NCBI GenBank assembly: GCA_031268315.1
Contig: JAIRXK010000040.1
Coordinates: 1-60,550, forward strand
Length of the DNA stretch: 60,550 nt
Reading direction: 5' to 3'
DNA from: Puniceicoccales bacterium
GTDB lineage: Bacteria; Verrucomicrobiota; Verrucomicrobiia; Opitutales; JAIRLM01
A program made the position numbers and the translations under genes. The notes beneath the pieces were generated by a model, which did not search any database, had not been told where the DNA came from, and saw nothing but the letters and a program-made list of their open reading frames with translations. Positions 39,220 through 52,038 of this stretch are shown piece after piece. How positions within the stretch are numbered: the first letter of the stretch is position 1; each line of letters opens with the position of its first letter.

Positions 39220-42200
39220 TTAATGATAGATGTGCACGTTCAGTGCGCCGTCGACTAATGCGCGCAGCCAACAATTTTCGGCGGTGAATGGCGATGGATT
39301 TTCGTACCATAGATTAAGCAATGTTTCCCGCTCATCTAAAATGCGGACATCTTTCAAGCTTTCCCTAATAAATTCGAAGCGAGTTTTTGTTTGACTAATT
39401 TCCGCATTCGAAAGCTGATTAACTTTTAAAAATTTCAGAAACTTTTCCTCCTCTTGAGCAGAAGTAGCATACGCCAACGCATCATACATCTCTTGTTTCA
39501 TGGGTGGCAATTTGAAAATAATCCGTTGCGCATTTTCGTGTGCTTGATCCTCGTGATATTTTTCGTTTTTTCCCCTTGCTTCTGAAGAGAGCGCCATAGA
39601 AGATATAACTTTTTTGAATACCTCCATAATATTTTTTGAAAATTCCTCTCTATTTTTGCCCAAATCCCATGGCGGAAGAATGCAACCCGCGTCAATGGCG
39701 CGAACACATTTGTCTGCTGAATTATAAATTACGTTACCACCATTGGCATCTATTTGTCCTGCAAGATAATTAAAAATTTGAACCATGATAGAAGATTGAA
39801 TGAGTTCTTCACTCACAGAAATTCCCTTCGCTTCCCATTCAAGCATAGTCATATCACCGGCAGAACTCATGGCAGTCCATTTTTGCCCATCGCCTTCCAG
39901 TACATTGGCAGTGTAAGTCGGCGATGGGAGACCTTTTTGAGTAAATAATTTTCCCAGTTCCGCATAGGCAAGGGCATAGATATCATGGCGGGGATTTTCC
40001 TGGCGCGTTTGCCCTAGGATTCTACCCATAAGTGCCTTCCGGATGGCCAATCGCGCGAATTCAGGATTTGATTCAATATTATTCAAAAATGAAACACCGT
40101 TAAAGCCGAAAATGTTTGCAAGCACGATTGTCCTAAAGCATCCATGATTAACATAGTAAATACCTTTGAATTTCTTAGCTAATGCAACATTAAATAGATT
40201 GATAACTATTCTATTATCCGTTTCGGACAGCAATTCTAGTGTTTTAATGAACTCTTCATTTATTACTGTGGAAAGAAAATCCCCTTGGGAAATTGTTTCC
40301 AAGCGATCGCAGAAAGAAGCGGTTGTTGCCTCCGGTTCAAGCTCACCAGCCCCTTTGATTCGAATTTCTCCGTCAAAATCAATGCGTGCTTTCCCTGGCA
40401 ACCATTCATTAAGATTTCGAACTGCTTTTTCTAATTCGGAATTATATATTTGCTTTATTTGTGTTTGCCCAAAGGGAGTTTTGGTGCCTGTTGGAATTTC
40501 GTCTTCCTCACCAAAGTATGAAATTCCTCTGCTATTTAGTATGCGTAAATCTTTCATAATACTTTCCATGATTTGACGCATATACGAAACGGGCCCGTCT
40601 GTATTTAATGTATCTTTCAAAGCAAGATTATCCATGGATCCATCGCTAAGGCAGCGCATTGTAACATCCATAATGCGACACATCGCTGAGAGAAGTTCAT
40701 CGCGATAGGGAAGCGACATTGTTAACAAGACCCTGGTTTTGCTACTTGCACGACATCCAAAAATTTTGCAAAACTTTTCCATTTGGTCACTAAAGATTTT
40801 TCCAATGGGTTCGTCTCCCCACTCAAAGTAATTCACTTTATTTTTTCTCATGGTCACAGCATGTGCAAATTCCGGACGAATGGTCGGCATTTCCATCGAA
40901 AGATATTGGATTCCGTTGTGCCATTGCGCCGAATTTTCGTTGACCATTTCAAATAATCGCGTAAGCGGGCAGTACCATTGATTTAAAAGGTTTCCGCTGT
41001 TGCCTTGCGAATTACAATTTTTAACAAATGCTAAAATTAGCTCATTTGTATTTGCTGGTATTGTATTTAAAATTTGCAATAATTGAGCTTTACGTTCCAA
41101 AGATTGATTTTTTTGAAATTCTTCAAACGCACGCCTTAGAGGATTCCAAAGTGCTAGATCTACATCCCCAAATCGACCATTATGCGCAATGAAAAGAAAT
41201 TTAAAAATGGCATCTTTTGTTATCGATGTAAGCTTTCCTATAAATTTAGTCAGCCCTGCATTGACTTCATCTTCAGGTGGAATAGTATCGGGCTGTTCTA
41301 CCTCTCTAGGTGCGGATGATTCATTGGCCCAGGGAACGGTGCTTGACTCAATTGGCGGCAGTGGTAAGCTTTCATATTGTTTCTTGCTTTGGATTTTCGA
41401 TGGCAATCGGCGACCGATTGAACGAAATGTTGGCAATGGCAATTTGTCCATGTCATTGAAATCTAAAAAGGAAATCTCCTTAGACGGAGTTAAATTAGCC
41501 TTGGAACTTGAAGGAGTTGAGTGTTTATTGGAATTATGTTGATCTGATTGATTGGAAGTTTTTCCCGCTGGAGCGGCGAAATGAAAGGCAACGCCGACTA
41601 GTGATAGCAGCAGCGCTGGGCTAAGTAATATTGCCGTAAACGCAATGCAATTTCCCCCAGCGGCCAATGCAATGCTAAGGAGAATGGGAGCGGTCAATAG
41701 GTTCGATAAAAATAGGATGGCAACAGTCAGTGCTGCTATGGCCAAAACAGCTGCGGTAATAAATGCCGCACGGAAAATTTTTTGCTGCAGCGACAATTGT
41801 GCGATATCGCTGCACGGGTCCGTTTTATGGCTGGATGAATGCATGCTATTAGTCAAGAAAGCTACTTCATCATTTTTACGAATTTCAGAAGAATCTTTGG
41901 AACGTGAATTCTCTAGCAATTCGCTTTCTTTCGACGATGACTCATCACTACTATCATCCATTTCCTCTGTCTCATAATTTTGCAATAGAATTTCTTCATC
42001 GGCAACATCTCTATATGATAGAAGCCATTCTGCGGCTCTTTCACTTGATAAATCGCTCCCATGGTTGTCATGATAAAACTCCTGGAGTCTTTTTTGAATA
42101 ATTTTGCTATCTACATATACTGAAGCCGGTAAGTGGGCGATAATGCAAATTACATTTTCGTTCCAATTAGGATATTGCTCCAATGTTTTAATGAGTGCCA

Positions 42201-52038: not shown

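Follow-up and report, generated by a model that had tools for sequence, protein, structure and literature searches.

A giant DUF3638-type protein of a Puniceicoccales bacterium with a predicted SF2/SecA-like motor, a probably degenerate N-terminal domain and a hairpin-bearing C-terminal extension

The stretch of DNA analysed here (the window; 60,550 nucleotides, positions 1 to 60,550 of contig JAIRXK010000040.1 of a Puniceicoccales bacterium) carries on its minus strand a giant open reading frame (ORF), which has gmk on its upstream side and two tRNA genes downstream of it. The ORF extends over 4,272 codons from a TTG at position 52038, and an ATG at 52032, two codons inside this start, gives a product of 4,270 amino acids (aa), P0001, which is the likely product; all residue numbers given below are those of P0001, residue i beginning at window position 52032-3(i-1). 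A preceding sequence-only reading of the window had described the ORF as uninterrupted over 12.8 kb, and ORF scan, translation and homology all agree with this, the translation of 39220..52038 (minus strand) containing zero internal stops. We regard the 12.8 kb gene as real, because a stop-free run of this length is beyond chance (about 3 of 64 codons are stops) and because protein homology with other giant ORFs spans about 2,800 residues. New in this protein is the combination of an intact motor, a seemingly decayed N-terminal domain and an internal hydrophobic hairpin followed by an orphan tail, the protein family itself being already catalogued. The parts of the gene are the following:

39220..52038, minus strand: giant ORF, 4,272 codons from the TTG at 52038, stop codon at 39220-39222
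50683..51525, minus strand: N-terminal domain, most likely degenerate, residues ~170-450, delimited by alignments and a profile search
45913..50682, minus strand: conserved scaffold, residues ~451-2040, with BLAST homology to the metagenomic relative P0002 and to Puniceicoccales ORFs
47113-47265, minus strand: TPR-like hairpin within the scaffold, residues 1590-1640, a weak, sub-threshold TPR_19 match (E 3e-4)
43663..45912, minus strand: predicted SF2/SecA-like ATPase core, residues ~2041-2790, consisting of RecA1, an inserted helical/beta domain and RecA2
45733-45753, minus strand: Walker A, MGSGKTK, residues 2094-2100, in family-invariant columns
45334-45345, minus strand: DEVH, residues 2230-2233, in family-invariant columns
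43759-43887, minus strand: motif V/VI-like stretch TFLDSARTVGSDP...LQALLRER, in which motif VI, QALLRER, occupies residues 2752-2758
42343..43662, minus strand: post-motor region, residues ~2791-3230, delimited by model secondary structure, pLDDT and conserved columns
41788..42342, minus strand: start of the C-terminal extension, residues 3231-3415, with no homology past ~3227 and including the acidic Ser-rich tract EEMDDSSDESSSKESE...
41572..41778, minus strand: Inc-like hydrophobic hairpin, residues 3419-3487 (69 aa), from a hydropathy scan
39223..41571, minus strand: orphan tail, residues 3488-4270, beginning with a Ser/Pro-rich linker (to ~3600), after which come ~670 aa for which no homologue was found
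39685..39768, minus strand: kinase-like motif YLAGQIDANGGNVIYNSADKCVRAIDAG, residues 4089-4116, a DxxxxN-like catalytic loop with IDxG 14 residues later

Searches of Pfam, NCBIfam and PDB sequences with the whole protein and with ten overlapping 600-aa tiles returned only two weak signals, and the tiling with profile hidden Markov models (HMMs) likewise gave sub-threshold TPR and DUF3638 matches only; the PDB sequence searches found no solved structure related to the giant protein at the sequence level. DUF3638 (PF12340) was met near the P-loop in one 600-aa tile (13.7 bits, E 0.04), the whole protein remaining unmatched. The gathering score of PF12340 is 31 bits, and two other members also score slightly under it, P0002 with 25.5 bits and L002 with 29.5 bits; in two relatives the DUF3638 E-values are 5.7e-7 and 9.6e-6. 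Word-indexed homologue searches proved to be largely blind to this giant family: a protein search of this kind yielded one relative, P0002, when started from the giant protein, and five matches when started from an alignment of its core. P0002 is a protein of 4,988 aa encoded on a metagenome contig of the Joint Genome Institute (JGI), where a TyeA gene adjoins it, and is 29% identical to the window protein over residues 991-3199, the BLAST alignment forming a single 2,200-residue segment of 750 bits. P0002 and P0003, the two closest relatives (at loci L001 and L008), lie on different contigs of the same metagenome (JGI sample 3300042619) and could belong to one genome as paralogues.

When one genome per bacterial species was scanned, six further loci came up, all of them in Puniceicoccales metagenome-assembled genomes (MAGs), with intact ORFs of 3,284-5,202 aa and, in one case, a frame that is open over more than 4,076 aa and cut at both contig ends; three paralogues of the giant protein are found in the Puniceicoccales MAG Gx481_bin188. 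BLAST homology with the six ORFs starts at window residues ~375-650 and reaches 3227, and BLAST scores of 463-750 bits over the ATPase/C-terminal region are accompanied by weaker upstream segments in the Puniceicoccales ORFs. Exhaustive HMMER searching with a profile of the core, covering 1.84 billion sequences, gave 308 representatives at E < 1e-3, of which 116 reached E < 1e-10 and 37 reached E < 1e-30. Most of these relatives measure 3,000-5,200 aa and have their P-loop near residue 2000; at source they are named 'hypothetical protein' or 'DUF3638 domain-containing protein', and the named sources comprise Puniceicoccales, Parachlamydiaceae, Chlamydiales (including Chlamydiales bacterium 38-26) and Legionellales MAGs. 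Nothing was found when viral contigs were scanned with the core profile, the patterns used there probably being too specific.

Residues ~375-3230 are thus one conserved unit of a sizeable family of giant proteins. The sequence-only reading could not assign roughly the first 2,000 residues to any family and saw in the remainder modules that do not normally co-occur in bacteria; neither view can be kept, as residues ~375-3230 share the conserved body of DUF3638-type giants and are conserved together across the family. Its phrase 'undescribed architecture' fits only the C-terminal extension, with its internal hairpin and 780-aa tail, and the N-terminal loss of a Gln...Cys pair (see below), the body being that of a known family. 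Pfam describes DUF3638 as a eukaryotic family, and the DUF3638 giants of fungi, protists and giant viruses are often automatically annotated as 'ubiquitinyl hydrolase 1'. The name DUF3638 conveys no function, and in the literature searched we found no experimental or analytical description of any member. DUF3638 giants and their bacterial relatives follow a common plan, consisting of an N-terminal His/Asn/Gln/Cys domain, a scaffold of about 1,500 residues, a superfamily 2 (SF2) ATPase whose P-loop lies around residue 2000 and, on the C-terminal side, a further conserved domain. The window protein differs from it by the absence of the Gln...Cys pair from its N-domain and by an internal hairpin that is followed by a unique tail of 780 residues.

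The P-loop/DEVH NTPase block, which the sequence-only reading had named, proved to be real and could be placed in a structural frame. An AlphaFold model of residues 2040-3230, built with an alignment of 36 relatives, reached a mean pLDDT of 84.8 and a pTM of 0.72, with only a Q/E-rich loop (~2947-2983) disordered. When the model was compared with the PDB by Foldseek, SecA of several species came out best (E 1.8e-7 to 1e-4, probability 1.0), followed by RapA, Dicer-2, XPD, DinG, MDA5/LGP2 and DdmD, with E-values up to ~1e-3 at a probability of ~1.0 and DdmD weaker. The TM-scores are low (0.15-0.43; 0.3-0.43 when normalised to the target), since the multi-domain query shares with these structures only the two-RecA motor and the long helix after RecA2. 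At every one of the family-invariant positions Q2062, G2095, G2097, K2098, D2230, E2231, G2553/T2554, D2630, Q2752, R2756 and R2758 the window protein has the consensus residue, and by their sequence these columns correspond to Q-motif, Walker A, Walker B and the arginine finger of motif VI. The model thus shows the core as a two-RecA SF2/SecA-like motor with a complete set of catalytic residues. Because every family-invariant catalytic residue is retained, this ATPase is probably active and would, as a motor driven by ATP hydrolysis, move along, or remodel, a polymer. With SecA and the SF2 helicases (RapA, XPD/DinG, RIG-I-like proteins, Dicer) it has in common two RecA-like domains, Walker A, DExH, a TGxD-type motif V and a QxxxRxR motif VI, and the insertion between the RecA lobes as well as the long scaffold helix after RecA2 are found in SecA, too. 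Unlike all of these enzymes, the window motor sits inside a protein of 4,270 aa with unrelated flanking domains.

On its N-terminal side the motor is preceded by the conserved scaffold (residues ~451-2040), which is helical and beta-rich in its middle part. On its C-terminal side the post-motor region combines long scaffold helices, the disordered Q/E-rich loop and the conserved C-terminal domain of the family, recognisable by the motifs NFFQISN..., CYFLSHDD and WMAHFFNGD. A coiled-coil tract had also been proposed in the sequence-only reading; what stands of it are the long scaffold helices that the model places after the ATPase (P0001 ~2791-2933), whereas a crude composition scan of the giant protein showed no strongly coiled-coil-like segment. 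Apart from one 12-nt repeat, the search of the giant protein for internal repeats or duplications gave none. This perfect 12-nt x 2.7 tandem repeat at 46273-46304 encodes KNAAKNAAKN (residues ~1910-1920) and is a possible slippage-prone site inside the ORF.

Relatives of the window protein carry near residues 200-450, in most cases, an N-domain with nearly invariant Gly-His, Asn-x-Gly-x-Gly and Gln-Arg-Ser-Gly-Asn/Thr-Cys motifs, the His, Asn, Gln and Cys columns being at least 90% conserved in 30 relatives. In the window protein, three independent alignments agree that the Gln-x4-Cys is missing where it would be expected, the aligned residues being Phe, Asp or Ser, and its residues 296-379 contain zero Cys; the occupancy of the His column differs between the alignments. 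A profile of 41 N-domains matched the window protein at residues 367-430 (E 1e-5) and 246-265 (E 0.27), and neither BLAST nor phmmer detected similarity to any relative in residues 1 to ~375. It appears from these comparisons that only the helical half of the N-domain is recognisably kept; the domain is most likely degenerate and catalytically dead in the window protein, where it would probably do no more than bind a partner or act as a scaffold.

The N-domain of the relative P0036 gave a confident AlphaFold model (pLDDT 88.1, pTM 0.84), which matches only N-terminal segments of Klosneuvirinae proteins annotated as 'ubiquitinyl hydrolase 1' or 'DUF3638 domain-containing protein' (E 2e-7 to 1e-4, probability 1.0), the viruses in question being Hyperionvirus, Harvfovirus, Hokovirus, Fadolivirus and Yasminevirus. 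By these matches, the bacterial giants and the giant-virus branch have in common the combination of this N-domain with a DUF3638 motor. In the model of the relative's N-domain, Cys171 opens the helix 171-188, with Gln166 five residues earlier, His48 opens the strand 48-56 and Asn68 follows the strand 62-67; the family N-domain may accordingly hold a thiol-enzyme-like constellation of residues, their spatial proximity being judged from secondary structure only. The order His-Asn-Gln-Cys had given rise to the idea of a clan CE peptidase (Ulp1/ChlaDUB-like, SENP-like), which no search supported: the N-domain profile found nothing among PDB sequences, no member of the giant family gave a Pfam match there, and in the Foldseek comparison of the P0036 model with the PDB the best E-value was 0.45, with no peptidase among the matches.

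Homology with every relative ends at residue ~3227, and the C-terminal ~1,040 residues are, by this comparison, specific to the lineage. This extension opens with residues 3231-3415, and its acidic Ser-rich tract, already pointed out in the sequence-only reading, is evident from composition (24 D/E and 19 S in residues 3301-3400). The Inc-type hydrophobic hairpin of that reading is also found, at residues 3419-3487. With Kyte-Doolittle means of up to 2.74 over 19 residues it is the sole strongly hydrophobic stretch and, as far as hydropathy tells, the only candidate for spanning a membrane in the giant protein; it can be read as two long or as three short hydrophobic lobes. Consistent with the earlier statement that a cleavable signal peptide is absent, the first 60 residues contain nothing that looks like a hydrophobic signal peptide. 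Bilobed hydrophobic domains of 50-70 residues recur in the relatives P0002, P0003, P0012, P0013, P0016, P0017, P0019, P0033 and P0037, where they end lineage-specific extensions at no more than ~90 residues from the C-terminus. These recurring C-terminal anchors speak for membrane attachment as a theme of the family; among the relatives examined, the window protein alone runs on past the hairpin, by 780 residues. With the chlamydial Inc proteins it has in common a long bilobed hydrophobic domain, the lack of a signal peptide, and a secretin of a type III secretion system (T3SS) as well as other Inc-like ORFs nearby. It is unlike them in that its hairpin is placed at residue ~3420 of 4,270, the hydrophobic domains of its relatives being found at the extreme C-terminus in the manner of tail anchors.

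Other members of the family end differently. In the C-terminal ~700 residues of P0007 (4,310 aa), HCHGGLGRS recalls tyrosine phosphatases (PTP-like) and DGNCFF ... HW is OTU-like, from which we conclude that different effector-type modules have been appended to the same giant body. P0050 (5,040 aa) and P0054 (4,463 aa) have repeat-rich C-terminal regions and, near the C-terminus, an apparent second copy of the N-domain motif (H..YNTG.G ... Q.GTC).

No homologue of the tail (residues 3488-4270) was found in an index of 5.8 billion proteins, in 150 proteins of the family, among PDB sequences or on metagenome contigs. The GC content at third codon positions (GC3) is 0.37 for residues 3231-3415 and 0.354 for the tail (0.35-0.37 overall for 39223-42342), compared with 0.43-0.45 for the conserved body (42343-50900), 0.42-0.58 for housekeeping genes and 0.36 for two Inc-like ORFs of the window. 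Such a low GC3 fits a fast-evolving or separately acquired module of the effector type. The tail further contains, at residues 4089-4116, the motif YLAGQIDANGGNVIY...AIDAG, in which YLAGQIDANGGNVIYNSADKCVRAIDAGCIL follows the pattern Y-[IL]-x-G-x-x-D-x4-N-[IV]-[IM], continued after 14 residues by I-D-x-G-x-I-L. This resembles the catalytic and activation loops of PI3K/PI4K and, less closely, DxxxxN/DFG as found in protein kinases, a likeness for which profiles give no support. Among 418k residues of family proteins the strict pattern was met a single time, and among 20,000 shuffled tails not at all, the loose one being present in 19 of 20,000; both patterns had been set after the sequence was seen. 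Kinase families of Pfam and NCBIfam and PDB sequences gave no match to the tail, even at permissive E-values. Compared with PI3K/PI4K-type kinases, an upstream Lys or Gly-rich motif was not identified, and the Arg-His of the DRH triad of lipid kinases is replaced by Ala-Asn. Of the lipid/protein-kinase-like loop that the sequence-only reading had proposed, the motif is therefore present and non-random, and profile and homologue searches gave no match; a kinase-like nature of the tail is possible.

The surroundings of the gene bear on the question of where such a protein might act, and the ORFs of interest in this respect are:

9386-9913, plus strand: CesT-like ORF of 175 aa, a weak but near-full-length CesT match (E 0.043)
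9771-11804, plus strand: SctC secretin ORF (TIGR02516, 362 bits against a cut-off of 238)
17140-18564, minus strand: Inc-like ORF with a bilobed hydrophobic domain of 50-60 residues and no family match
22153-23499, plus strand: Inc-like ORF with a bilobed hydrophobic domain of 50-60 residues and weak LRR matches

These ORFs substantiate the earlier mention of a T3SS secretin and of other Inc-like proteins in the window, two of the latter being confirmed; for the T3S chaperone, also mentioned there, the match covers nearly the full length of CesT and is weak. Both Inc-like ORFs are low in GC (0.38-0.39). The CesT-like ORF lies directly upstream of SctC and overlaps its longest ORF, and the true start of SctC is probably an internal Met before a lipoprotein-like hydrophobic stretch.

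Taking these observations together, we think it rather probable that the window protein, a divergent DUF3638 giant with an SF2 motor, is exported by the T3SS and anchored by its hairpin as a giant host-directed effector. We are led to this reading by the hairpin, by the T3SS/Inc context, by the presence of the family in intracellular bacteria and giant viruses and by the effector-type modules of its relatives. The giant protein would be exported by the T3SS encoded in the same genome, its hairpin would insert into the membrane of the vacuole (inclusion), and the motor body of 3,400 residues as well as the tail would both face the host cytosol, where a host polymer or complex would be the target of the motor, and a second activity, possibly a kinase-like one, would come from the tail. 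Several points weigh against this proposal. A length of 4,270 aa is extremely large for a T3SS substrate, and no T3S signal can be verified from the sequence. Inc hairpins are usually N-proximal and Incs typically measure 100-1,000 aa, whereas the hairpin is found here at ~3420, and it is internal in the window protein and terminal in the relatives; if it consisted of three membrane segments, the tail could come to lie across the membrane from the body. By itself the window protein stays under the gathering score of PF12340 (13.7 against 31 bits), and its membership in DUF3638 follows from transitive homology and profile searches. The likeness of the modelled fold to SecA and helicases is generic for two-RecA motors and identifies no substrate. 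Expression, secretion, membrane insertion, topology, ATPase activity, substrate and an enzymatic role of the tail are all inferred.

The large size and the lack of a signal peptide or verifiable secretion signal could also be understood if the protein were not secreted at all, the hairpin residing in the bacterium's own inner membrane and the motor working in the bacterial cytoplasm, for example on nucleic acid or on polypeptides at the membrane. The best fold matches, SecA and DNA/RNA helicases, are cytoplasmic proteins, and the flanking genes are housekeeping ones (gmk, mutL, hisS). We nevertheless judge this unlikely, given that the family occurs in obligately or facultatively intracellular bacteria of protists, giant viruses and eukaryotes, a distribution typical of host-interaction proteins, that relatives bear PTP-like and OTU-like motifs and repeat-rich C-terminal extensions, and that the vacuole membrane is the location suggested by long hydrophobic domains with two lobes when the genome also has a T3SS and other Inc-like ORFs. 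The unusual position of the hairpin could be explained by a chimeric ORF, in which the ancestral gene ended after the hairpin, at no more than ~90 residues from the C-terminus as in every relative examined, and the tail represents a downstream gene joined to it by stop loss or by an assembly or frameshift error. That no homologue of the tail was found and that a Ser/Pro linker of low complexity, with an internal Met, stands between hairpin and tail is in line with such a fusion; yet the reading frame is continuous in the given sequence and the low GC3 begins before the hairpin (~residue 3231), so that the extension looks like one compositional unit, and we consider a chimera improbable.

Very large size and a T3SS-bearing, chlamydia-like genome are also what the window protein has in common with LifA/Efa1 and the chlamydial cytotoxins, and nothing beyond these two features speaks for placing it among them or among the large toxins of the MARTX/RHS kind. 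The searches with whole protein and tiles gave no toxin, glycosyltransferase or cysteine-protease match, neither a glycosyltransferase (DXD) nor a CHD protease domain being matched, the conserved body is that of the DUF3638 family, and there are no internal repeats. We therefore rejected LifA/Efa1 and MARTX/RHS identity, which hardly deserves any credence, in agreement with the sequence-only reading, which had held that the protein is probably not simply of the LifA family. Scarcely more credible is a giant anti-phage or immune NTPase of the DdmD/Hna kind: DdmD and Hna do come up in the fold comparison, though weakly (E 6e-4 to 1e-2), but zero PADLOC matches were obtained, no partner defence genes were seen among the annotated neighbours, and the hairpin, the host-type modules of the relatives and the taxonomic distribution do not fit. 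A known defence system was rejected as well, the PADLOC search having given no families. If the reading as a host-directed effector is extended to the tail, one arrives at a bipartite machine of the inclusion membrane, in which a giant SF2 motor of the eukaryote/giant-virus type, put to a new use, serves as pseudo-protease scaffold, is tethered by the hairpin and is joined to a divergent PI3K/PI4K-like kinase domain. This extension is doubtful; were it true, ATP-driven remodelling and local phosphorylation of lipids or proteins would act together on host membranes or organelle contacts.

With these data the anatomy of the family becomes concrete: an N-terminal Cys/His domain of a novel kind, a motor resembling SecA and helicases, a C-terminal domain that is conserved and, in many bacterial members, a hairpin anchor. 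In the literature searched we did not meet the type of motor, the N-domain fold shared with giant viruses, the hairpin anchors or the spread over Chlamydiales, Legionellales and Puniceicoccales. The occurrence of the same plan in chlamydia-like bacteria, Legionellales, verrucomicrobial symbiont-like MAGs and giant viruses fits gene exchange among users of shared protist hosts, and because of this distribution we see in the family a candidate class of effectors that are very large and directed at the host. The window protein itself can be viewed as a natural separation-of-function variant and should be a useful test case for the motor alone.

Around the giant gene, promoter and terminator scans performed no better than shuffled controls. 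Its downstream boundary is formed by tRNA genes, which are common integration sites, and the gene may thus sit at an island-like position; beyond the tRNAs follow the housekeeping genes hisS, a fused MurE-MurD ligase, mutL and lepB. A Kdo transferase is also encoded in the window, whose gene content would suit a chlamydia-like organism. The remaining features of the window are the following:

39131..39206, plus strand: tRNA-Phe, 14 nt past the stop of the giant ORF, marking the downstream gene boundary
38786-38872, minus strand: tRNA-Tyr, beyond tRNA-Phe
33553-36318, minus strand: apparent fused MurE-MurD ligase of 921 aa, with the MurE match at residues 37-490 and the MurD match at 514-915
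76-1008, plus strand: ORF with an autotransporter beta-domain (Pmp-like), whose N-terminal passenger may lie before the window start
4437-5450, minus strand: ORF of 337 aa with no family match, an extremely acidic N-terminal stretch of ~60 residues and one hydrophobic segment at 151-173

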